From an uncultured virus (IMG/VR IMGVR_UViG_3300032070_000004) (taxonomy: Duplodnaviria; Heunggongvirae; Uroviricota; Caudoviricetes): a stretch of DNA of 20,000 bases. Shown here one piece after another: positions 3,707 through 17,526 of the stretch (position 1 is its first letter; each line of letters starts with the position of its first letter). Under the pieces are notes generated by a model. The model did not search any database, was not told the DNA's origin, and saw only the letters and a program-made list of their open reading frames with translations. The stretch lies in the IMG/VR virus record IMGVR_UViG_3300032070_000004; one strand, 5' to 3'. The translations under genes were made by a program, and so were the position numbers.

Positions 3707-3711
3707 CGTTT

Positions 3712-3783
3712 GGGATTGTGGGGTAGTGGTTAGCCTCCGTGCCTTGGGAGCACGGGTCGCATGTTCGATCCATGCCAATCCCA
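3712..3783 (+). tRNA. trnP: tRNA-Pro(TGG)
   Basis: Cloverleaf GGGATTG/CAATCCC; anticodon arm CGTGC CTTGGGA GCACG. Confidence 0.92.
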
Positions 3784-3786
3784 TGC

Positions 3787-3859
3787 ACTCCCGTGGGGTA
3801 GTGGTCAAGCCCGCTCGCCCTTGAAGCGAGCAACGACAGTTCGAATCTGTCCGGGAGTT
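3787..3859 (+). tRNA. trnQ: tRNA-Gln(TTG), C33 variant
   Basis: ACTCCCG/CGGGAGT; CTCGC CCTTGAA GCGAG; T-loop TTCGAAT. Confidence 0.85.
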
Positions 3860-3860
3860 T

Positions 3861-4109
3861 CCCGCCTGCATTCGGCGGTATAGAAATGGAATGCCGAGTA
3901 AGTCCCTTCCGAAAAGGATGAGGATGCCTTTGGGTGGTGTGACGAAGTAGGAAGGGGTTCGAAAACTCCTTGCCTAACTGGGCTAAACCGCCTGTATCGG
4001 CGGTATAAACAAGTAGAACTGGTGCCGTGGATAGACAACCGGTTGAAGGATACGTCGTCCGCACGACATGAGCGGTGGGGTGCGCCAAACACCCCGCCCA
4101 TAATAGTGA
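3861..4109 (+). ncRNA. two tandem ~125-nt structured RNA candidates (units 1 and 2)
   Basis: Each starts with CCGCC-loop-GGCGGTATA followed by several hairpins; no credible ORF. Confidence 0.55.
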
Positions 4110-4183
4110 GTCCCCGTAGTTACAATTGGAAGAACGGCTGCTTTGCAAGCAGATGGCTGCGGATTCGAGTTCCGCCGGGGACA
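4110..4183 (+). tRNA. tRNA with TGC (Ala) anticodon lacking G3:U70
   Basis: GTCCCCG/CGGGGAC; GCTGC TTTGCAA GCAGA; T-arm GCGGA TTCGAGT TCCGC. Confidence 0.75.
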
Positions 4184-4184
4184 T

Positions 4185-4316
4185 AACCGCTTTGATCGGC
4201 GGTATAGAAATAGATCACCAACTGTGGCGACGCCCGGTTCGGCATTGCAGAGTCAGGTGCGGCGATGCCACGCGCGGCGCAGTCTTGCAATGCCCGGCGC
4301 TGCGAGGCAAGGAAAG
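4185..4316 (+). ncRNA. structured RNA candidate (unit 3)
   Basis: Same 5' motif ACCGCT TTGATC GGCGGT ATAGAAA; long stem GGCATTGCA/TGCAATGCC. Confidence 0.55.
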
Positions 4317-4317
4317 C

Positions 4318-4389
4318 GGACCCGTAGGAGAGCGGAAATCCTCCGGACTCTTAATCCGGCAATCGTGCGTTCGAATCGCACCGGGTCCG
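4318..4389 (+). tRNA. trnK: tRNA-Lys(CTT)
   Basis: GGACCCG/CGGGTCC; CCGGA CTCTTAA TCCGG. Confidence 0.9.
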
Positions 4390-4392
4390 CTC

Positions 4393-4465
4393 AGCTCCCT
4401 CGTCTAGCGGTCAAGGATGCGCGCCTCTGGAGCGCGCGGCGGAGGTTCGAATCCTCCGGGAGCTA
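4393..4465 (+). tRNA. trnQ: tRNA-Gln(CTG)
   Basis: AGCTCCC/GGGAGCT; CGCGC CTCTGGA GCGCG. Confidence 0.92.
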
Positions 4466-4505
4466 TTACCGCGAAATCCCGCGCGGGATAAAAAGTACGG
4501 TGTGT

Positions 4506-4605
4506 GGTAAGGTTAGGTGTGGTGTGGTGGGGTATGGTGTGGTGTGGTGTGGTGTGGTAAGGTATGGTTTGGTAGGGTGAGGTGTGGTTCGGTAAGGTAA
4601 GGCAT
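4506..4605 (+). repeat. GGYNN pentamer tract A (20 in-phase units)
   Basis: GGTAA GGTTA GGTGT GGTGT GGTGG GGTAT ... GGCAT. Confidence 0.95.
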
Positions 4606-4745
4606 TCGCGAGGCGGTTCGCCCCGCCTCGCGAGTCTCCCGGGATATCCGGGGTTATGGTACGGTGAGGTGTGACGCGGAGTCGATGAAGATTGAGGCAT
4701 CATAATAAATCGAAACACTTTTATTCTCAAAGAGCATACGCAGAT

Positions 4746-4819
4746 GGGCATTTAGCTTAACCGGCAGAGTCCGTGGCTCCAAACTATGGGGATGTACGTT
4801 CAATTTCGTACAATGCCCA
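4746..4819 (+). tRNA. trnW: tRNA-Trp(CCA), intronless
   Basis: GGGCATT/AATGCCC; CGTGG CTCCAAA CTATG; 8-nt T-loop; CGAAA..TTTTATT promoter-like site upstream. Confidence 0.8.
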
Positions 4820-4920
4820 TGCAGTGGTAGTGGTGTAATGGACGCGCGCTTTGTCATAATTGCCATGTACATGTCCACTGGTGTATGAAAACATTAAATA
4901 TGACATGGGAAGATATTATT

Positions 4921-4995
4921 GGGCGCGTGGCGTAGTCAGGACAGCGCGCTTGCTTGCGGAGCAAGAAGCCGGGGGTTCAAATCCCCTCGCGCCCG
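4921..4995 (+). tRNA. trnR: tRNA-Arg(GCG)
   Basis: GGGCGCG/CGCGCCC; CTTGC TTGCGGA GCAAG; GCG is the archaeal-type anticodon; GAAAACATTAAATA promoter-like site upstream. Confidence 0.92.
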
Positions 4996-4997
4996 TA

Positions 4998-5070
4998 GAT
5001 CCCGTAGTCTAGCGGACAATGATGGTGGATTCTCGATCCACCAGCGTGGGTTCAAATCCCACCGGGATCG
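4998..5070 (+). tRNA. trnE: tRNA-Glu(CTC)
   Basis: GATCCCG/CGGGATC; GTGGA TTCTCGA TCCAC. Confidence 0.92.
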
Positions 5071-5073
5071 TGT

Positions 5074-5148
5074 GCGCGTGTAGTGCAGCACGGATAGCAT
5101 ACTTGACTTCGGATCAAGTGGTCGGGGGTTCGAATCCTCCCACGCGCG
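5074..5148 (+). tRNA. trnR: tRNA-Arg(TCG)
   Basis: GCGCGTG/CACGCGC; CTTGA CTTCGGA TCAAG. Confidence 0.92.
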
Positions 5149-5151
5149 TTG

Positions 5152-5224
5152 GCTCCTGTCGTCTAGCGGACAAGGATGGTGGACTTTCAATCCATCGGCA
5201 AGGGTTCAAATCCCTTCGGGAGCA
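5152..5224 (+). tRNA. trnE: tRNA-Glu(TTC)
   Basis: GCTCCTG/CGGGAGC; GTGGA CTTTCAA TCCAT. Confidence 0.92.
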
Positions 5225-5227
5225 TTA

Positions 5228-5310
5228 ACGCAACTTAACACAACATTACCACACAAGAATCTACGACGGAGAAATCTCTTGTTCTGTGGTAATGTTGTGT
5301 TAAGTTGCGT
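5228..5310. repeat. 26-bp perfect inverted repeat
   Basis: 5228-5253 ACGCAACTTAACACAACATTACCACA is the reverse complement of 5285-5310. Confidence 0.92.
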
Positions 5311-5422
5311 CAAATCCCAATGTAAATTCCCAACGCGGGGCAATTTGCGCGCGCTCGCTCATGGTGTGTTAATGTGTTCATAATTGAAAAATATTATATA
5401 TTCACAAACCAAATCACATTGT

Positions 5423-5519
5423 GCGCTCGTGGCGCAGGGGTGGCGCAGTCTCCTTATATTCGGAATTACCCCCGAAGAGGACAAGGGAAAGGTCGGAGGT
5501 TCGATCCCTCCCGGGCGCA
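5423..5519 (+). tRNA. trnI: tRNA-Ile(TAT) with 25-nt BHB intron (~5458-5482)
   Basis: GCGCTCG/CGGGCGC; BHB with helix CCTT/GAGG, bulges ATA and ACA, intron stem TTCGG/CCGAA; spliced loop CTTATAA; TTATATA box upstream. Confidence 0.85.
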
Positions 5520-5563
5520 TATTTTGTAAAGATTATATACTTGGAAAACACATAGTTATAAGC

Positions 5564-5635
5564 GGACGTGTGGCGTAGAGGTGGCGCTGCGGGCTTTTAA
5601 CCCGACGGGCAAGGGTTCGATCCCCTTCACGTCCA
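5564..5635 (+). tRNA. trnK: tRNA-Lys(TTT)
   Basis: GGACGTG/CACGTCC; GCGGG CTTTTAA CCCGA; own TTATATA box at ~5533. Confidence 0.88.
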
Positions 5636-7663: not shown

Positions 7664-7726
7664 ATCGAAATCTATTTAAGGATTCGCGTCCCACAATTAT
7701 ATGCACCGCGTATTGCGGTGTATTGT

Positions 7727-7816
7727 GGTGTGGTACGGTCTGGTATGGTTGGGTGCGGTTAGGTAGGGTGTGGTAAGGTACGGTTTGGTGCGGTATGGTT
7801 GAATTCGGTAAGGTCG
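7727..7816 (+). repeat. GGYNN pentamer tract B
   Basis: 15 in-phase units (7727-7801), then AATTC and 2 more units. Confidence 0.93.
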
Positions 7817-8516: not shown

Positions 8517-8518
8517 CT

Positions 8519-8881
8519 ATGCCACTTCTTATCGAGGGAAAAGAAAACGAAGACGAAGGACTCCCCACCCCTGCCGCACCCGCGGGCAACAAAGATTGGT
8601 TGGACACGGACACCGTGTATTACCACGAGATGTTTCAAGACAAGCTAAAGTGCCCGACGTGTGGATACCCACAATATTGTGGGTGCTGCGATTACTGCCT
8701 CAGTAAGATTCCCCCCGGAATAAAACCATACACTACATATCCAGATGGATACAGTTGCCCACAGTGCGGATTCAAAGGTTCGTGCGACTGGTGGCTGGAC
8801 GAAGGAACACGCCAGCTTGATGAAAGGCTGCAGAGCGTCTACCAAGGGCGAGTCGATCGTCCTCTCGAATATCCCCGCTAG
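8519..8881 (+). CDS. Cys-rich Zn-binding protein
   Basis: CPTCG, CGCCDYC and CPQCG motifs; ATG at 8519. Confidence 0.7.
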   Translation: MPLLIEGKENEDEGLPTPAAPAGNKDWLDTDTVYYHEMFQDKLKCPTCGYPQYCGCCDYCLSKIPPGIKPYTTYPDGYSCPQCGFKGSCDWWLDEGTRQLDERLQSVYQGRVDRPLEYPR

Positions 8882-9101
8882 TAACATCTGTCTCGCGGCG
8901 CGACCCCAGTAGAGACTACGCGAGGCGGGGTGATTTACGTCGGAGGATTGAGATCGCCCTCGCGCGCCTGTTTTTTCACCGTATAGTACGATACCAAACC
9001 AAGCCCCTTACTCGCCCCGTATCGCGAGTCTCCGCACGATCACGGGATGGGTATCGTTATGTTTATACGGAGGAAAACCCAACGTGAGTTGGTGATTCCC
9101 A

Positions 9102-9317
9102 TTGGTAGTATTTTGGAACATTGTCCGAGTCAATGATGGCGCTCCTTCGCGAGTGTTGGAGCATGGTATCGAGGATCTTGAACACGCGTCCCGGCGGAGA
9201 CGGGAACTATGTAGAATGTATGGTTTAGACACCACCGAGATAAGGCTGGACAAAGTATTTCACGATGATTCTGTTCTCATGGATGTTCGTGCGAGAGCAC
9301 TTGACTTCCCACGGTAA
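9102..9317 (+). CDS. hypothetical protein
   Basis: 71-aa ORF with GGTGA SD and TTG start. Confidence 0.45.
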   Translation: MVVFWNIVRVNDGAPSRVLEHGIEDLEHASRRRRELCRMYGLDTTEIRLDKVFHDDSVLMDVRARALDFPR

Positions 9318-9383
9318 AGGAAAAAATACCTTTATCTACTTTTACAACCCACGCATAATTACCCCACATGGGGTTGCGGTTCT

Positions 9384-9443
9384 GGTAAGGTTTGGCAAGG
9401 TGTGGTGAGGTAAGGTGGGGCATGGTTTGGCAATGCGAGGTGA
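9384..9443 (+). repeat. GGYNN pentamer tract C
   Basis: 10 in-phase units (9384-9433) plus TGCGA GGTGA. Confidence 0.9.
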
Positions 9444-9494
9444 ATTCGGAACCGGAAACCCCCATTCCGAATTATGATATTCAAAGGAGGTAAA

Positions 9495-10896: not shown

Positions 10897-12047
10897 AAAG
10901 AAGCATATTCATAGGTGATTCGTTTCCAGTCCCAGAAGGGCACGGTGGTGGTGTTGTGTCGTATCATGAGATAAAATCACTTGCCACTGTTTTCCCCTCT
11001 CCGGAGGTCTATACGCGACCAAAGGAAACACCACTTCTCGTAGATGTGACATACCCCGGGAACCCGTACATGTTTGATTACTGCATTGCAGCAGCGATCA
11101 AGAATCCCGAAACAGTGACGCTCGCGAAGATTTACGGTGCTGGGCTTCCCCTTACCATGAAATCCCTCCACGGTGCGAAGGTTATCCCCACGGTTCCCGT
11201 TCACAACCTGAAAATCAGTGTCGAGGAGTGGTGGAACCTGCATAACGACGCCTCGTGCTACGGGGCGGGTATCCGTTTCAAGGAGCCAGAACCCCATGTC
11301 ACGAACGAACAGTTGTTTCGGCTCATCATGCTTGGCATCCGCAAGTATGCGACCACTATTGTCTGCCCGGGAACTAACAGCGTTAACTTTCTGAAAGATT
11401 ACTTCAAGGATGCCCCACCTAAAGGAGAGATAGTCATCATCCCCCATGGAACTGACATCCCAGAAAAGGTTGCAACCAAGGAGACCCGCGGGGACATCTT
11501 CACGGTACTCCATGTCGGATCGGTAGGAAGTGACAAGGGCGATCGATATCTTCAACACGCATGGGCATCTGCATTTCCCCACCTGAAGAATGCACGCCTC
11601 GTGTTCATGGGAAACAACGCGAGCTGGTTTGGCATCGGGTTTAAATCGTCCGGATTAGGAGACTTCGGATCTCTAAATGTGAGCTGCCTGAGCGGACCCG
11701 CAGCCAATGCTGCAGCTAAGGAGAATGCGTACTTCGGGGCATCTGTGTATGTGCAGTCTTCCGTGACCGAGGGGTGGGGAATTCCAGTTGGGGAAGCCAT
11801 GGCTCATGGGATTCCTGCAATTGTAACTGACCGTACCGGTGCAGTTGACATGATAACAGATGGGTCCGACGGATTCATCGTACCAATACGTGATCCTGCG
11901 GCAATTGCCGAGAAGATCCGGTACTTCTATGACAATCCCATCGAAGTAATTCGCATGGGTGCAAATGCTCGGCACAAAGCATGGGCATATAGCTGGGAGA
12001 GGGTCGAAAAGATGTATGCTGACCTTATCCGCCGGGAATCAGAGTAA
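10893..12047 (+). CDS. GT-B fold glycosyltransferase (GT4 family)
   Basis: VG.V...KG and S.TEGWGIPVGEAMAHGIPAI (EX7E) motifs. Confidence 0.92.
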   Translation: MKRSIFIGDSFPVPEGHGGGVVSYHEIKSLATVFPSPEVYTRPKETPLLVDVTYPGNPYMFDYCIAAAIKNPETVTLAKIYGAGLPLTMKSLHGAKVIPTVPVHNLKISVEEWWNLHNDASCYGAGIRFKEPEPHVTNEQLFRLIMLGIRKYATTIVCPGTNSVNFLKDYFKDAPPKGEIVIIPHGTDIPEKVATKETRGDIFTVLHVGSVGSDKGDRYLQHAWASAFPHLKNARLVFMGNNASWFGIGFKSSGLGDFGSLNVSCLSGPAANAAAKENAYFGASVYVQSSVTEGWGIPVGEAMAHGIPAIVTDRTGAVDMITDGSDGFIVPIRDPAAIAEKIRYFYDNPIEVIRMGANARHKAWAYSWERVEKMYADLIRRESE

Positions 12048-13124: not shown

Positions 13125-13493
13125 TTATCGCCGTTTCCTTCCCCTTCCCATCGTGGAGAACATTCCAAACTCACCCGGTTGGATACCACCAAATGCCTTC
13201 CGTGTCCACGGTGGGAGCCTGTATCCGCGGCGGCTTGCCCATCTTCGACGGCTTGCCTTGCGTTTGCGTCTGCGGCTCGCCTTTCGGCGCGGCTTGCAGA
13301 CCATTCTGCATCGGCGGCTTGCCCGTCTTCGGGTTGCACCCTTGAGGAACTTCTTCCAGCACCGCTTTGCCGCACGAGAGAATGCCTTCCGTGCTGCTTT
13401 TGGCGTGTGGAACTTAGTTCCTTTCAGAGCAGAGATGAGACATTTCTTGTATCCCCGCTTGCCCCTTGCAGCCCGATGTCGTCTGCGTACCAT
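13125..13493 (-). CDS. Arg/Lys-rich protamine-like protein 2
   Basis: MVRRR...GKRGYKKC...KFHTPKAARKAF; GGGGTG SD. Confidence 0.8.
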   Translation of the reverse strand: MVRRRHRAARGKRGYKKCLISALKGTKFHTPKAARKAFSRAAKRCWKKFLKGATRRRASRRCRMVCKPRRKASRRRKRKASRRRWASRRGYRLPPWTRKAFGGIQPGEFGMFSTMGRGRKRR

Positions 13494-13527
13494 ATCCGTT
13501 CACCCCGGCTACCTCAACGCAATTGCG

Positions 13528-13791
13528 TTAGTAGCGTCGGCGTCGGCGGCTTCCGCGTCGTCTGCGTCTGCGGCTCGCCTTTCGGCGTCGTCGTCTGTGT
13601 GCCTTGCGTCTGCGTGGCATCTTCGAGAGCTTCTTACGGCAATTCTTTGCCGCGCGCCCGAATGCCTTGCGTGCTGCCTTTGGCGTGTGGAACTTGATGC
13701 GCTTCATCATTCCGACGATACATTTCTTGTATCCCCGCTTTCCACCAACGCGCTTGTGGGCACGCTTGTGTGCTCGTCTGCGTCTAACCAT
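13528..13791 (-). CDS. Arg/Lys-rich protamine-like protein 1
   Basis: Paralog of the adjacent gene; GGTGA SD; GAAACAGGTATATATA promoter-like site at ~13843-13858. Confidence 0.8.
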   Translation of the reverse strand: MVRRRRAHKRAHKRVGGKRGYKKCIVGMMKRIKFHTPKAARKAFGRAAKNCRKKLSKMPRRRKAHRRRRRKASRRRRRRGSRRRRRY

Positions 13792-13886
13792 TGTCTTTTC
13801 ACCGGGTGATACTTCACCCGAGATGTGTATTGAACCCTAAGCTATATATACCTGTTTCAAAAAAATTTTTTAGGAATTTCACAAAT

Positions 13887-13902
13887 CGAAAGTTTTAATA
13901 TA
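13887..13902 (+). promoter_or_regulatory. archaeal BRE-TATA promoter
   Basis: CGAAAG TTTTAATATA, like CGAAAGGTTTAAAT at 18387 and other promoter-like sites in the window; no ORF follows. Confidence 0.65.
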
Positions 13903-13921
13903 TCACAAGTCTAAACGCATA

Positions 13922-14306
13922 TTGCCTCTGAGGGCGAGTGAGTTCCGAGAACTTGTCCATGGCGTAACCGCTCTGCGACCTATGAAGGGGTGCTGGACGT
14001 GGGTGCAAAGCGCCCCGGTAAAGGTGCCGACGGGTACGCCAGCAAAAAGCCCCACGCGTGGCTTTATGACCACCTGCGTTGAGATTAGGCAGCAGTAAGC
14101 GCGCGGTCCGAGAGACCCCCACCCGTAAAAGTCGGCTGTAAGACTGCCACTCGACGCAGCACCTCAATTCGAGAGTGCGGAGAGATTTGACCCGCCCCGT
14201 AAAGTCTCCGGGGCACGCCCGACGTTAACTCAACTTCGTCAGGGCAAACATAATAGAGACGGGCTGACCGGTAATGCCTATGACCTCCGCACTCAACCCG
14301 GGTTTT
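13922..14306 (+). ncRNA. ~380-nt highly structured ncRNA candidate
   Basis: Multiple long-range helices with G-U pairs on the + strand, an upstream promoter and no convincing ORF. Confidence 0.65.
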
Positions 14307-14313
14307 CAAGTGT

Positions 14314-14733
14314 TTACGGGAAGATGATTTTTATGATCCATGGAGTTGCCAGAGATACTACGAATGCGACTCCCGCTGCAAATCCAATGATCTTCCAAGT
14401 AATCTGGCTGATTGAAGACACCTGTGTGACAAGACCATCGCATGTGGTCTTAGCGTAATCCGCCTTGGTTTCGAGAATAGCAACCTGCCGTTGCAGGTAC
14501 ACAATCCGGTCACTATTATCCTTTCGGATGATAGATGCAGCCCCCGACTCAGTTTTGAGGGATGCGAGTTTTTCTTTGATTTCTGCAATCTCACCTTCTA
14601 TGTGTTTTCTATCTTCACACAAGGAAGTAATGTCACGCGTTACGAACTCGGATTTTGAAATGAGCGTCGCTAGCTGGGTAGTGAGTGTCTGAATCTGACC
14701 AAGCAGGTCTCCAAATTCATCTCCCGGTGCCAT
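14314..14733 (-). CDS. coiled-coil protein with C-terminal TM helix (XhlA/lysis-accessory-like architecture)
   Basis: Heptad-rich body; hydrophobic tail IIGFAAGVAFVVSLATPWII. Confidence 0.7.
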   Translation of the reverse strand: MAPGDEFGDLLGQIQTLTTQLATLISKSEFVTRDITSLCEDRKHIEGEIAEIKEKLASLKTESGAASIIRKDNSDRIVYLQRQVAILETKADYAKTTCDGLVTQVSSISQITWKIIGFAAGVAFVVSLATPWIIKIIFP

Positions 14734-15265: not shown

Positions 15266-16795
15266 TTACCCGAATACCACGTGCCACACTGCGATTATCC
15301 ACGCCACAAACTTCTCCCACGGAGTCGATGTTGGGGTTGGGATTGGGGGTGGAGGTGGAGGTGGAGGTGGAGGTGGAGGTGGAGGTGGAGGTGGAGGTGG
15401 AGGTGGAGGTGGAGGTGGAGGTGGAGGTGGAGGTGGAGGTGGCGCAGTCGTGGTAATACTCGCTCGCGCGAAAGTTGCCCCACCTACATTACTTACATCA
15501 AGTTGAACTGTAAATTGTCCTACCGATTGGTAGTTGTGCGACGGAGCGATGAGAAAGGATAAATCGGACCCATCCCCAAAGTTCCATGTTCGTTTATCTA
15601 CAGTTCCATCTGACCTGTCGAAGAATTGCACCAGCAGAGGCACCTGCCCCGCAGTTGGAATCGCCTCAATCTTTGCAACCGGGGGTTCGACCGGAGGAGT
15701 TGGAGGTGCAGGTGGCACGATGATAATCTTGCTCTCTTCCGCGTCGAGAATGGTAAAGAACTCGATTGCCCCGACGTTGAAGTAGCTCCACGAGATACCT
15801 CCGATCTTCGCAGGCAGCTCGTCGCGCCACGAGTGGAGACAGTATAAATAGTTCGCATCGTACCCTACAAAACACAGGGCGTGCCCTCCCACCGTGTCAC
15901 CTTTGGGATCGGGAATGATTCCGGTTTTAGGATCTACCGACAGGTAATTCTCATATACCTCGATTGCACCGAGAACAAACCCATATTTTGCGATTGCGTC
16001 ACGTACGCCTTGCGCAGATGTAATTGATGCATATCCTGAAATCTTGTGTTTAAGAGCGAATTCAAATGCGCGCTCCTTGGTAATGGGGTGTTCGTCGGGG
16101 TATGGAGTTCGCCACGCTGTGATACCATCCTTCGAGAGATACCACTGGTCGTTGAGGCATATTCCTTCGTCTTTCCACGATGCCACGGAGCACGATACAT
16201 AGCTACCCGAGGGTTCGGTTACATTGCACTTGACACGTGATCGCCAATATGCGAACGCGGCTGCAAATGATTTTGGAAGGAGAATGTCGTAGTACGTGGT
16301 GCTGTTTGGATTCGCGGGATCAAACTTGACATTGAACTTGACATGCTGCCAGTCTGCATCGGTCGGAATATCTCCGGTGAGTTGAATATAGTTTATGTTA
16401 GCGCCGTATGCTTCTGCCTGACCCACGCACGTCCCCGTTTTTCCCTGTCCTTGGTGAACCACATGCTTGATGTGCGAGTTCATGTATGCTGGTGGGGTAA
16501 CGCTCGCCCCCTGCGCTCCTTGCGGTTTTCGATCCGATTTCTTTTTCTGGATGTCCTCGTACCTAATAGCTTTTCGTGATGCTTCTGGGAGTTTTGACTT
16601 CTTGGTATAGTGCAGAAGAAGGAATCGAGCTCGGTATACACCATTCTCCTCGATGATAAATCCTTTGAGTTTGTGTTCAATGAGTGTTTTCTTAAGGTCT
16701 TCTGGTGTCTCGTCGAGTATTCTTAATTTGATTTCCTCGAACGTTAATCCGTTCTGCTTTTCGAGTTCACGATAAATCTTCGTGGCAATTGTCAT
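15266..16795 (-). CDS. papain-like (C1) cysteine peptidase with N-terminal wHTH-like region, PKD domain and poly-Pro tail
   Basis: QG..GTCVG (Cys), GHALCFVGY (His), LHSW; PKD motif G.VPL.VQF.D.S...WNFGDG...H.Y...G.FTV.L.V.N. Confidence 0.85.
   Translation of the reverse strand: MTIATKIYRELEKQNGLTFEEIKLRILDETPEDLKKTLIEHKLKGFIIEENGVYRARFLLLHYTKKSKLPEASRKAIRYEDIQKKKSDRKPQGAQGASVTPPAYMNSHIKHVVHQGQGKTGTCVGQAEAYGANINYIQLTGDIPTDADWQHVKFNVKFDPANPNSTTYYDILLPKSFAAAFAYWRSRVKCNVTEPSGSYVSCSVASWKDEGICLNDQWYLSKDGITAWRTPYPDEHPITKERAFEFALKHKISGYASITSAQGVRDAIAKYGFVLGAIEVYENYLSVDPKTGIIPDPKGDTVGGHALCFVGYDANYLYCLHSWRDELPAKIGGISWSYFNVGAIEFFTILDAEESKIIIVPPAPPTPPVEPPVAKIEAIPTAGQVPLLVQFFDRSDGTVDKRTWNFGDGSDLSFLIAPSHNYQSVGQFTVQLDVSNVGGATFARASITTTAPPPPPPPPPPPPPPPPPPPPPPPPPPPPPPPPPIPTPTSTPWEKFVAWIIAVWHVVFG
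15344..15442 (-). repeat. (CCACCT)n microsatellite encoding 33 prolines
   Basis: GGTGGA repeats on the + strand, in frame within the peptidase. Confidence 0.95.
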
Positions 16796-16827: not shown

Positions 16828-17526
16828 TTATCTGCCGGTTCCGCTGTTATAGACGTAATCACGTTCGTCGGTTGTGAGGACACGGCTCCAGACACGGAAC
16901 TGATCGATCATTCCTGCCCAGTGATAATAGTGGTTAGGGCTTTCTCCAAAAAAAAGTGTTCCATTTGAGAAGCTTGTGGAGACTGTAAAAGTAATTGGAG
17001 CACCACGATTTATAGTCATAAACCCTTGACCAGATCCGGTCCCAGTTCTTCCAATTTCGATATATTGCCAAGTGTTTGCTAAACTTGTGTACCATATCAC
17101 ACCACTATCCCCCACGGTTATCTGCCCAGTGTACGGGGGATTGTTATGATTAGTCCACATATAAAATTCATTAGATGCGAGATCGTCCATCAATATGGGT
17201 TCGTTGTGCCCCAGAACCGTATCATTCAACCAGAACGAATACATGAACGCTCCTGTACCAAACGCAAACGATGCGGGTTCAGCAACATAGGGATAATCGC
17301 CAGCCCCGGGAGAACCCCCGGTTCCCGGGATACTTACACAATTGCCTACTTTGCCCGCTGGATATGTAACCGTTCCATTTACTGAATAATTCGCGGAGTC
17401 TGCACTGTCGAGTAGAGGAGTTTCAAACGCATATTCGAGAATCATATTATTCCTCCACGTAGACGAGGGATCAGCAGCTCCCGATTTTATTCCCATCGTC
17501 CCCCGGCGTCTTCGAATTGTCGTCAT
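16828..17526 (-). CDS. LamG/ConA-like domain protein (probable virion/receptor-binding)
   Basis: F..SFW, NTWQYI, G.IDQFRVWSRVLT..E motifs. Confidence 0.8.
   Translation of the reverse strand: MTTIRRRRGTMGIKSGAADPSSTWRNNMILEYAFETPLLDSADSANYSVNGTVTYPAGKVGNCVSIPGTGGSPGAGDYPYVAEPASFAFGTGAFMYSFWLNDTVLGHNEPILMDDLASNEFYMWTNHNNPPYTGQITVGDSGVIWYTSLANTWQYIEIGRTGTGSGQGFMTINRGAPITFTVSTSFSNGTLFFGESPNHYYHWAGMIDQFRVWSRVLTTDERDYVYNSGTGR

Follow-up and report, generated by a model that had tools for sequence, protein, structure and literature searches.

A candidate gene for a structured non-coding RNA with recurring GUAAA elements in an uncultured archaeal-type virus

Genomic setting

The window analysed here is a stretch of 20,000 nt (G+C 0.506) from the record of an uncultured sediment virus, for which gene content and promoters make an archaeal-type virus a plausible source. 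No annotated relative was found. Near-identical copies are present in three sediment DNA metagenome runs (X1-X3), with zero differences over the parts of the region of interest that they cover; a fourth such run, X4, does not cover it. Rfam models and ARAGORN identify 12 tRNA genes and one DUF3800-X RNA in the window, whose tRNA array (3711-5635) lies about 8 kb from the candidate RNA gene discussed below (13920-14306). Several of the tRNA genes are separated by 1-3 nt only.

The gene map is compact, and the candidate occupies the largest gap besides the tRNA array and 8517-9276. It sits between two leftward transcription units, at an interruption of gene direction. To its right, a 139-aa gene on the minus strand ends with a stop codon at 14314; two T runs of the same strand, T5 at 14044-48 and T4 at 14127-30, fall inside the region and downstream of this stop. 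To its left, a very basic protein of 87 aa is encoded on the minus strand (13528-13791), transcribed divergently from TATATATA at 13843-13850, followed by a 122-aa gene on the same strand (13125-13493) that sequence comparison identifies as its paralogue.

Both basic proteins have long arginine-rich tails. Their family comprises 14 metagenomic homologues with the invariant residues Y21, K22, C24, T36, K38, R41, A43, F44, A47 and C51, and belongs to no Pfam or PHROG family. Contigs of 129-138 kb in ENA and JGI carry the homologues P0002 and P0009. The AlphaFold model of the 87-aa protein has a helical-hairpin core with pLDDT >90, for which Foldseek returned no match at E<=0.001; Atlas matches of the basic protein score <=0.83, and its best PDB sequence match, to eukaryotic L29, has an E-value of 0.2.

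Promoter-like site, transcript ends and base composition

A BRE/TATA-like sequence, CGAAAG followed by TTTTAATATA, is present at 13887-13902 on the plus strand and points rightwards into the region, as the original prediction had it. A promoter function is suggested by its build, a purine-rich element plus an A/T octamer, which matches that of three tRNA promoters in the window; these lie 27, 30 and 32 nt upstream of the tRNA genes at 4920, 5423 and 5564, a spacing that the candidate would share. TATA-like octamers are found within genes too, e.g. at 17167, 5768 and 6190.

A non-coding transcript of ~380-387 nt is proposed on the plus strand (13920-14306). By analogy with the tRNA genes of the window, it would start at 13920-13927 and end at TTTT (14303-14306), the T-tract that had been reported to close the region. 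The self-complementary ACCCGGGU (14296-14303) runs into this TTTT, so that the proposed 3′ end with its putative termination signal spans 14296-14306. The tRNA ending at 5519 is likewise followed at once by TTTT. TTTT is a weak terminator, and the T5 of the minus strand at 14044-48 could end the transcript of the upstream operon within the region.

Base composition changes sharply at the left edge: the region has a G+C content of 0.59, compared to 0.318 in the 132-nt left spacer and 0.506 in the window as a whole. In this respect, it resembles 11 tRNA genes (0.49-0.68). The left spacer contains an A7T6 run, and 13855-13910 is A+T-rich.

Coding potential and known RNA families

Codon-usage log-odds are negative for the four listed ORFs and the six frames of the region, ranging from -0.07 to -0.32 per codon as opposed to +0.07 to +0.27 for the 14 training genes, in keeping with the earlier view that no credible ORF exists here. 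For the 90-, 74- and 58-aa ORFs, neither 1.84 billion representatives nor a 5.8-billion-protein collection, which was searched twice, yielded a homologue. The one match among the representatives, P0015 (E 1.1e-6 summed over four stretches), was read as an artefact of a five-fold tandem-repeat frame, of which ~19-26 residues are matched per copy.

The region was scanned with cmscan against Rfam 15 (4227 families), both at gathering scores and with permissive filters at E<=10 over 13750-14400. No true match to a known family was obtained at E<=10, which agrees with the description of the RNA as unassigned; the only row, a pestivirus element on the minus strand, reaches 14.9 bits where the gathering score is 85, and is read as chance. 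RNase P, SRP and group I cores, already missed on first inspection, did not appear at E<=10, and archaeal SRP RNA, group I/II introns, small self-cleaving ribozymes and riboswitches were likewise absent at this threshold in 13750-14400. Nor did the models of ROOL, GOLLD and other large Rfam RNAs match in the region.

A collection of homologues had been envisaged for covariation analysis, but IMG/VR, GenBank phages, one metagenome scan and one genome scan yielded none. In GenBank phages, blastn detected no relative of the region. Searches of IMG/VR via two neighbour proteins, an alignment of the basic protein and four DNA patterns gave no homologue; 10 IMG/VR loci retrieved with two of the DNA patterns align only across the seeded 17-24 nt. 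A two-motif pattern matched GTDB genomes at seven bacterial sites, with ~8 estimated by chance, and these too aligned at the seeds only. In JGI metagenomes, nine loci carry the basic-protein gene with no similar RNA alongside (blastn, nhmmer), a result that lends no support to the suggested ribonucleoprotein particle (RNP) with the adjacent basic proteins; the closest relative, L002, starts just left of the expected promoter position.

Secondary structure

All five helices of the original prediction are found on the plus strand. H1 (13987-94/14009-16) is a hairpin of 8 bp including one G-U pair, with a 14-nt loop; H3 (14074-83/14150-59) is 10 bp long and likewise includes one G-U pair; and H4 (14088-92/14144-48) has 5 bp, H3 and H4 together enclosing a hairpin at 14105-14117. 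These three are part of the minimum-energy fold, whereas the 6-bp H2 (14022-27/14159-64) can be read from the sequence but is absent from that fold. H5 (14173-82/14285-94), with 10 perfect pairs, closes a domain at 14173-14294, hereafter domain II. Minimum-energy folds further contain a plus-strand hairpin at 14217-14246, formed by GCCCGACG and CGUC(A)GGGC around a 12-nt loop.

The complementary pairs proposed as pseudoknots also exist, i.e. 13998-14003/14051-56, 14026-31/14131-36, 14030-35/14121-26 and GTCTC/GAGAC at 14204-08/14256-60. The complementarities behind the pseudoknotted fold stand, but the specific fold is not supported, since helix counts are those of chance and H2 lies outside the minimum-energy fold. 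Of 200 shuffles, 11 contained a Watson-Crick stem at least as long as the longest one here (10 bp). Stems of at least 6 bp number 18 compared with 14.2+/-3.5 in shuffles (35 of 200 reach 18), and G-U-allowed stems of at least 8 bp number 12 compared with 13.4+/-4.0 (129 of 200 reach 12). As a set, the listed helices and pseudoknots are mostly at chance level.

Folding energy gives the whole plus strand a modest advantage over shuffles, with z-scores of -2.24 (3/100 shuffles) and -2.01 (6/200); the minus strand scores -1.32 (11/100 shuffles; range -0.9 to -1.3). The domains at 13925-14021 (z -0.17) and 14022-14164 (z -0.45) fold no better than shuffles. Domain II is the sole part that does (z -3.39, 0/400 shuffles), with its minus strand at -2.96 (1/400). 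A preference of G-U pairs for the plus strand had been pointed out, and indeed those in H1 and H3 would become A-C on the minus strand. The pairs in H5 and in both bulged helices described below are all Watson-Crick, and thus discriminate neither between the strands nor between RNA and single-stranded DNA.

GTAA and GAGA motifs and the bulged helices

The recurrence of GTAA, noted early on, holds: the motif occurs seven times and its complement TTAC not once. Seven copies were reached by 0/2000 and 0/3000 dinucleotide shuffles; family-wise over 256 tetramers, 89/3000 shuffles attain the maximal z of GTAA. GAGA is present eight times in the region (1/3000 shuffles).

Three of the GTAA motifs stand out on the plus strand as GUAAA copies next to or within G-C-rich helices. 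The first is a GGUAAA linker (14017-14022) that joins the 3′ strand of H1 to the 5′ strand of H2; it is included in a repeat, 14011-14040 / 14193-14219, whose score was reached by 5/500 shuffles. The second belongs to module 2, in which the continuous strand GCCGACGGGU (14026-14035) forms 10 Watson-Crick pairs with the segments 14121-24 and 14131-36, leaving the bulge at 14125-14130 in the strand ACCC [GUAAAA] GUCGGC (14121-14136). The third belongs to module 3, in which GCCC [CGUAAA] GUCUC (14194-14208, bulge at 14198-14203) forms nine Watson-Crick pairs with the continuous strand GAGACGGGC (14256-14264). Every sequence difference between modules 2 and 3, three in total, is compensated (A-U to G-C, G-C to U-A and G-C to C-G), which is the sole stand-in for covariation among homologues.

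Two distinct helices with 6-nt bulges sharing a 5-mer arose in 1/6000 shuffles, a figure that overstates significance given that the bulged-helix geometry was picked post hoc. A shared 4-mer was seen in 24/6000 and any two distinct bulged helices in 606/6000. Both bulged helices are missing from the minimum-energy fold. Module 2 crosses H3/H4, with which it could coexist only as a pseudoknot, and enforcing it in place of H3/H4 costs ~20 kcal/mol; the hairpin 14194-99/14209-14, which the minimum-energy fold uses, is incompatible with module 3, whose enforcement carries a penalty of 6 kcal/mol.

Several familiar explanations for such motifs were discarded. A K-turn was rejected as the non-bulged strands are fully complementary, and inspection by eye argued against both a box C/D RNA (no UGAUGA box was seen) and classical GNRA loops (no hairpin was seen to close GUAA or GAGA as a tetraloop). 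Tandem duplication of whole domains was rejected given alignments limited to 20-30 nt repeats. No paralogous copies of the region were found elsewhere in the window.

A candidate non-coding RNA gene

Taken together, the best reading is still that of an unassigned non-coding RNA with its own promoter, given the lack of a family match and of a coding signal, the tRNA-type promoter and the tRNA-like G+C content. More precisely, we favour, with somewhat less than even confidence, an independent gene at ~13920-14306 on the plus strand that encodes a stable structured non-coding RNA of an undescribed family in an uncultured archaeal-type virus. What is observed at the locus is an absence of coding signal, a promoter-like site, an abrupt shift in composition, enriched motifs and a pair of bulged helices whose differences are compensated; transcription itself, along with its strand and ends, the fold and all functional steps, we infer. 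That the virus already has other small-RNA genes, 12 tRNAs and a DUF3800-X RNA, is in keeping with this reading. Against it count the lack of any homologue in the searches above, helix numbers and lengths at shuffle level, two domains with shuffle-like folding, the absence of the bulged helices from the minimum-energy fold, the weak terminator and the nine basic-protein loci with nothing similar alongside.

Under this hypothesis, the host RNA polymerase would start ~25-30 nt past the BRE/TATA element and stop at the T-run after the self-complementary ACCCGGGU. The RNA would fold into several domains. Its recurring element, present in three copies, may be a G-C-rich helix that GUAAA, as a bulge or linker 5-6 nt long, interrupts; two of the copies would be helices of 9-10 bp with a 6-nt bulge. 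These A-rich bulges would be the likeliest functional sites. They might serve as repeated protein docks, with the arginine-rich tails of the two neighbouring basic proteins as candidate partner, or alternatively mediate RNA–RNA tertiary or quaternary contacts. The RNA would then presumably have a scaffolding role in infection, not that of a message.

Alternative explanations

A rather unlikely alternative is that the region holds no discrete structured RNA at all, being spacer or decayed sequence, possibly the long 3′ UTR and termination zone of the minus-strand operon of the 139-aa gene, in which case the helices would be chance complementarity in G+C-rich DNA. Helix counts and lengths at shuffle level are what one would expect from such sequence, as is the shuffle-like folding of two of the three domains; the two minus-strand T runs downstream of the stop at 14314 fit a termination zone, and the failure to find a homologue and the intragenic occurrence of TATA-like octamers point in the same direction. 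However, this explanation does not account for a block of 0.59 G+C adjoining a spacer of 0.318, for the strand-specific excess of GTAA and GAGA, or for the two GUAAA-bulged helices with compensated differences and the z-score of domain II, and the remaining genome is compact.

Alternatively, the direct repeats may act at the DNA level, as iteron-like sites for a viral DNA-binding protein in a replication origin, regulatory or packaging site. The repeats in question read CCC(N)CCCGTAAA(A)GTC and CGCCCC(G)GTAAAG; direct repeats D1 and D3 were detected, only 5/500 shuffles match the 14011-40 / 14193-219 repeat, the A+T-rich spacer with its A7T6 run adjoins, gene direction is interrupted here and the adjacent genes encode very basic, possibly nucleic-acid-binding proteins. 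Yet, the copies are imperfect, number no more than 2-3 and are unevenly spaced (~107 and 73 nt), the region shows no skew switch, and four other GTAA motifs, the GAGA excess and exact complements of the repeat flanks would not be expected of iterons. We consider a DNA-level element quite improbable.

In a virus with 12 tRNA genes, several of them 1-3 nt apart, a highly diverged RNA of RNase P type, or one that binds the tRNA elbow, also comes to mind as serving the tRNA array. The candidate is of similar size to RNase P RNA and has many GUAA-type motifs. GUAAAGUCUCC (14199-14209) and AUAGAGACGGGCUGA (14253-14267) resemble what we take to be the P4 strands of RNase P, and UAUGAA-hairpin-GGUAAA ... 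AGCAA (13980-14045) what we take to be its J11/12-P12-J12/13 double T-loop module. The core of the latter is given as AG..A and UG..A in a passage of PMC3664808. None of the models RF00373, RF00010, RF00011 and RF02357 matched at E<=10 on 13750-14400; in control scans, a bacterial RNase P RNA receives 106.1 bits from RF00373, and RF00010 detects 61 of 61 genomes. An S-domain sub-model, R1 (88 positions, 24 pairs, 30 sequences), was derived from 31 bacterial RNase P RNAs after removal of one with missing landmarks. With filters off, it gave 21 matches at E<=10 in the 20 kb, none of them in 13924-14306. The best (20.4 bits, 11901-11993) lies inside a glycosyltransferase gene and the one nearest the candidate (13786-13823, minus strand) in the promoter spacer. 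Moreover, the motif order is not collinear, as S-like motifs lie 5′ of P4-like ones; GUCUC and GAGAC (14204-08/14256-60), of presumed CR-I/CR-V likeness, can pair, but the order of neighbouring elements is unlike RNase P. Unlike RNase P RNA, the candidate also appears to lack a terminal P1 pairing of its 5′ and 3′ ends. Going by the model tests, this reading appears largely refuted and is very improbable.

It is likewise highly unlikely that the region encodes one or more small proteins, be it in a 38-aa ATG frame (13982-14098) inside the 58-aa frame or in the 90- and 74-aa frames of the minus strand. Open frames of 58, 90, 56 and 74 codons do exist, but no frame begins with ATG at full length, the ATG at 13982 is not preceded by a Shine-Dalgarno-like GGTGA, every codon score is negative and the 58-, 90- and 74-aa frames have zero homologues.

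Finally, a tRNA gene with multiple introns, or a set of tRNA-shaped RNAs arranged as a cassette, is extremely improbable and largely refuted: the 10-bp H5 could resemble an acceptor-like stem, but ARAGORN reports nothing in the region, the Rfam tRNA model gives no match at E<=10 in 13750-14400, no T-arm is visible by eye before the 3′ strand of H5, and a 21-nt likeness to a tRNA-Glu T-arm (E 3.2) does not fold as an arm.

Comparison with known RNAs

Recognition of bulged helices by arginine-rich peptides is known from HIV Tat-TAR, Rev-RRE and lambda N-boxB. As in these systems, G-C-rich bulged helices of the candidate non-coding RNA would meet arginine-rich proteins, whose genes it adjoins. 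In contrast to them, its bulges are 6 nt long and A-rich, and relatives carry the protein gene without the RNA beside it; the parallel is one of principle only.

A packaging RNA, an earlier suggestion, would, like the phi29-type pRNA, be a viral structured RNA with loop-loop contacts; such pRNAs measure ~120-170 nt. The Rfam scan of the candidate yielded only the chance pestivirus row, a comparison in which the presence of a pRNA model in the release is not assumed, and none of the 18 ORFs scanned in the window could be recognised as a portal or packaging ATPase gene.

Further parallels are ROOL and GOLLD, large structured RNAs of bacteriophages and prophages that are among the least understood RNAs. 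The candidate would share with them a viral origin, a length of several hundred nt, the lack of a coding function and an unassigned role. However, many GOLLD members exceed 800 nt and ROOL RNAs are ~580 nt long, whereas the candidate is shorter (~385 nt) and matches neither Rfam model; its structure is a prediction from a single sequence, and its host is archaeal-type. ROOL and GOLLD lie in phage genomes at or near tRNA islands; the candidate shares its window with a tRNA array that is ~8 kb away. ROOL and GOLLD self-associate, and the candidate ends in the self-complementary ACCCGGGU, but its multimerisation is pure conjecture. Going further, one might envisage that archaeal viruses possess a class of large structured RNA of their own, new to science and defined by repeated GUAAA-bulged G-C helices and a palindromic 3′ end, which would self-assemble or join the adjacent arginine-rich proteins into an RNP scaffold, as a counterpart of ROOL and GOLLD; we regard this extension as speculative and probably incorrect.

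For now, the region is a single-sequence candidate, useful chiefly for directing transcript mapping to a defined locus and, once relatives of the virus have been sequenced, as a query. To our knowledge, all well-supported classes of large structured viral RNAs come from bacteria and their phages. If the interpretation as an RNA gene is true, an independent RNA gene this large, in a virus of archaeal type with a tRNA array, would extend the phenomenon to another domain, and an RNA of ~385 nt would offer a compact object for structural work.

A candidate gene for a stable RNA

The + strand at about 13920-14306 is read here, tentatively and at a little short of an even chance, as a gene in its own right that makes a stable, structured RNA from a new family, a case that rests on one sequence. 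In promoter build, G+C content, gap size and terminal TTTT, the region looks like a stable-RNA gene. The predicted BRE/TATA-like site, CGAAAG followed by TTTTAATATA, is present at 13887-13902, and sites upstream of tRNA genes in the window are built alike, with a purine-rich GAAA element and then an A/T octamer (4893 before 4920, 5393 before 5423 and 5532 before 5564; spacings of 27, 30 and 32 nt). Applying this promoter-to-gene spacing, the candidate RNA would start at 13920-27. The predicted T-tract corresponds to TTTT at 14303-06, immediately after the self-complementary ACCCGGGU; the tRNA ending at 5519 is likewise followed by TTTT. G+C content is 0.59 in the region versus 0.318 in the 132-nt spacer to its left and 0.506 in the window, and is comparable to that of 11 tRNA genes in the window (0.49-0.68). 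The gap containing the candidate is the largest in a rough gene map, excluding the tRNA array and 8517-9276.

Folding and motif content

The five helices of the original prediction all exist, namely H1 (13987-94/14009-16; 8 bp, one G-U), H2 (14022-27/14159-64; 6 bp), H3 (14074-83/14150-59; 10 bp, one G-U), H4 (14088-92/14144-48; 5 bp) and H5 (14173-82/14285-94; 10 perfect bp), as do the three complementarities that it called pseudoknots, but as a set such pairings do not go beyond chance as judged by dinucleotide shuffles. A 10-bp perfect stem arises in 11 of 200 shuffles; Watson-Crick stems of at least 6 bp number 18, compared to 14.2±3.5 (18 being reached in 35/200), and G-U-allowed stems of at least 8 bp number 12, compared to 13.4±4.0 (reached in 129/200). 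This match to shuffles in stem counts and lengths speaks for the main rival reading—that nothing discrete is made here and the helices are chance—which we consider unlikely, if well above negligible.

Folding energy on the + strand is modestly below that of shuffles (z -2.24, 3/100; z -2.01, 6/200), and the signal is weaker on the - strand (z -1.32). While 13925-14021 (z -0.17) and 14022-14164 (z -0.45) are unremarkable, 14173-14294, the domain closed by H5, is the sole part folding clearly better than shuffles (z -3.39, 0/400), and it stands out on both strands because a perfect inverted repeat must.

The excess of short motifs is real. GTAA occurs seven times, just as first counted, against 1.55 expected (reached by 0/3000 shuffles), its complement TTAC is absent from the region, and GAGA occurs eight times against 2.04 expected (1/3000). 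Over all 256 tetramers, a value as extreme arises in 89 of 3000 shuffles, and of 981 sliding windows across the 20 kb, just five reach seven GTAA.

GUAAA copies and bulged helices

Three GUAAA copies have flanks in common, with the repeat of 14011-40 at 14193-219 being reached by 5/500 shuffles and that of 14114-33 at 14189-206 by 11/1000. Two of these copies are 6-nt bulges in helices that are perfect in every other respect: the unbroken strand GCCGACGGGU (14026-35) pairs with ACCC[GUAAAA]GUCGGC (14121-36), and GAGACGGGC (14256-64), also unbroken, with GCCC[CGUAAA]GUCUC (14194-208). The bulged strands differ at three positions, each of which is compensated in the partner strand. Of 6000 shuffles, 606 contain two distinct helices with such a geometry, 24 have bulges sharing a 4-mer and only one has bulges sharing a 5-mer, although the geometry was picked post hoc and the true significance is therefore lower, by perhaps a factor of ten. 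The remaining copy (14017-22) forms the linker between H1 (3′ strand) and H2 (5′ strand).

The bulged helices are the best-supported structural feature of the candidate RNA and its likeliest functional sites; by analogy, a protein might dock on them, or they might mediate RNA–RNA contacts. The minimum-energy fold contains neither of them: enforcing 14194-208/14256-64 costs 6 kcal/mol, and 14026-35/14121-36 crosses H3 and H4, with which it could coexist only as a pseudoknot. Since every pair is Watson-Crick, the bulged helices give no strand information, and assignment to the + strand draws on the promoter, the better + strand z-score and, as argued originally, the single G-U pairs of H1 and H3. 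That the region is instead an element working at the DNA level seems improbable.

Known RNA families and coding potential

Rfam 15 identifies 11 tRNAs and a DUF3800-X RNA (3892-3964) in the window, all outside the candidate region, where nothing reaches the gathering score. With permissive filters, 13750-14400 gives a single row at E≤10, for a pestivirus element (- strand; 14.9 bits versus a gathering score of 85), meaning that this check, foreseen in the original prediction, returned no known family at either setting. Closest in kind are the phage RNAs ROOL and GOLLD, portrayed in one account as large, non-coding, of unknown function and found in viruses with tRNA islands (10.1101/2024.12.08.627333). 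The candidate would likewise be large and non-coding, with a tRNA array some 8 kb away, but it is a member of neither family, as their Rfam 15 models have no match in the region. Among the matches listed, the literature held no large non-coding RNA or RNase P RNA from an archaeal virus, although this absence is not proven.

The dozen tRNA genes of the window made a likeness to RNase P RNA worth testing. Several stretches look like parts of that RNA: P4-like strands at 14199-14209 and 14253-14267, and a hairpin between UAUGAA and GGUAAA, with AGCAA after it. The archaeal RNase P model, which gives 106 bits to a bacterial RNase P RNA used as a sensitivity control, has no match in the candidate region. 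RNase P RNAs were also obtained from 61 genomes; of the 31 loci extracted, 30 yielded an S-domain core for a covariance model, one row without landmarks being left out. In an unfiltered search across the entire window, 21 matches to this model reached E≤10, none of which fell within 13924-14306. Its best match (20.4 bits at 11901-11993) lies inside a glycosyltransferase gene and is taken as chance, the E-value being roughly calibrated. The double T-loop core AG..A / UG..A, in the description by Lehmann et al. (PMC3664808), is a pattern too short for diagnosis by eye. Having failed both models, an RNase P-like RNA is very improbable, in keeping with the original assessment.

The region is non-coding. 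Log-odds of codon usage, with 14 long genes of the window as the training set, are positive for all 14 (+0.07 to +0.27 per codon) and negative for every ORF and frame of the region (-0.07 to -0.32 per codon), which agrees with the earlier view that it holds no credible ORF and makes small ORFs a far-fetched explanation. A 90-aa frame had one match among 1.84 billion representatives, to a frame that is itself a five-fold tandem repeat (~19-26 residues matched per copy) and is taken as an artefact, and protein searches with the 74-aa and 58-aa frames returned nothing. A broken tRNA is the least credible reading, as neither ARAGORN nor the tRNA model finds a multi-intron tRNA or tRNA-shaped RNA in the region.

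Relatives and neighbouring genes

Near-identical DNA is present in contigs from three or four sediment metagenome runs, with no sequence differences inside the region. No similar sequence was found in GenBank phage records or IMG/VR, nor any annotated relative of the window; a motif scan of GTDB genomes gave seven seed-only matches, with about eight estimated by chance (our own arithmetic).

To the left of the candidate lie genes for two basic proteins of 87 aa (13528..13791, -) and 122 aa (13125..13493, -), tandem paralogues that are likewise paired in the closest relative, metagenome locus L002. This family of small, extremely basic proteins (window 13125-13791, -; L002 96-720) conserves an N-terminal MVRRR, GYKKC and KF.TPKAARKAF..A.K.CRKK. 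For the 87-aa protein, 14 homologues were found, all metagenomic. Both basic proteins have arginine-rich tails and a confidently modelled helical hairpin (residues 18-56), and family and fold searches gave no match for them. Adjacency is the sole link of these proteins to the candidate RNA.

Scanning metagenomes with the basic-protein alignment yielded nine loci, two with tRNA arrays, and neither blastn nor nhmmer detected an RNA similar to the candidate in them. In L001, the corresponding place holds only an A+T-rich promoter spacer. The JGI contig of L002 starts ~10 nt beyond the base that aligns to position 13878 of the window, slightly to the left of where the RNA promoter would lie, and two Logan contigs of this relative end at the same place, ~10 nt past the last aligned base; this common end may reflect a repeat, a variable junction or the end of a genome. 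Downstream of its basic-protein pair, L002 carries a long inverted repeat (742-985; arms of ~45 nt around ~100 nt) that resembles a MITE-like element or a large hairpin; its sequence shows no relation to that of the candidate RNA.

Virus context and other features of the window

The window has the look of a fragment from a large virus whose host is an uncultured archaeon. It has 12 tRNA genes with archaeal-type promoters and encodes an MT-A70 methyltransferase, a PD-(D/E)XK nuclease, an ATP-grasp protein, an HD hydrolase, a glycosyltransferase, a LamG-like protein and a C1-peptidase/PKD protein with a long proline linker. ARAGORN and Rfam each report 11 tRNAs in the array (3711-5635, +), several genes of which are separated by just 1-3 nt: tRNA-Trp (4745-4820) comes from ARAGORN alone, and a 97-nt tRNA (5423-5519), probably intron-bearing, matches Rfam and was missed by ARAGORN. 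A small hairpin (CCGCC...GGCGG), then TATAGAAAT or TATAAA, is repeated at 3863-3890, 3990-4012 and 4188-4210, each copy preceding a ~75-120-nt non-tRNA stretch (3892-3964, 4010-4109 and 4200-4317) that may be another small-RNA gene or a structured tRNA leader. Directly after tRNA-Glu lies a long near-perfect inverted repeat (5229-5310; arms of ~35 nt).

A degenerate pentamer, GGTNN (GGTGT, GGTAA, GGTAT and others), forms intergenic arrays on the + strand at 4502-4602, 7724-7800 and 9376-9440, two detected by Tandem Repeats Finder and the third by eye. A second ORF-poor stretch of ~600 nt (8882-9490) lies after a Cys-rich ORF (8520-8881); it includes hairpin-like segments rich in G+C as well as one GGTNN array, and no Rfam family matches it. 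Finally, TGGAGG is repeated 16.5 times at 15344-15442 (+), which on the - strand codes for a run of ~33 prolines within the 509-aa C1-peptidase/PKD protein.
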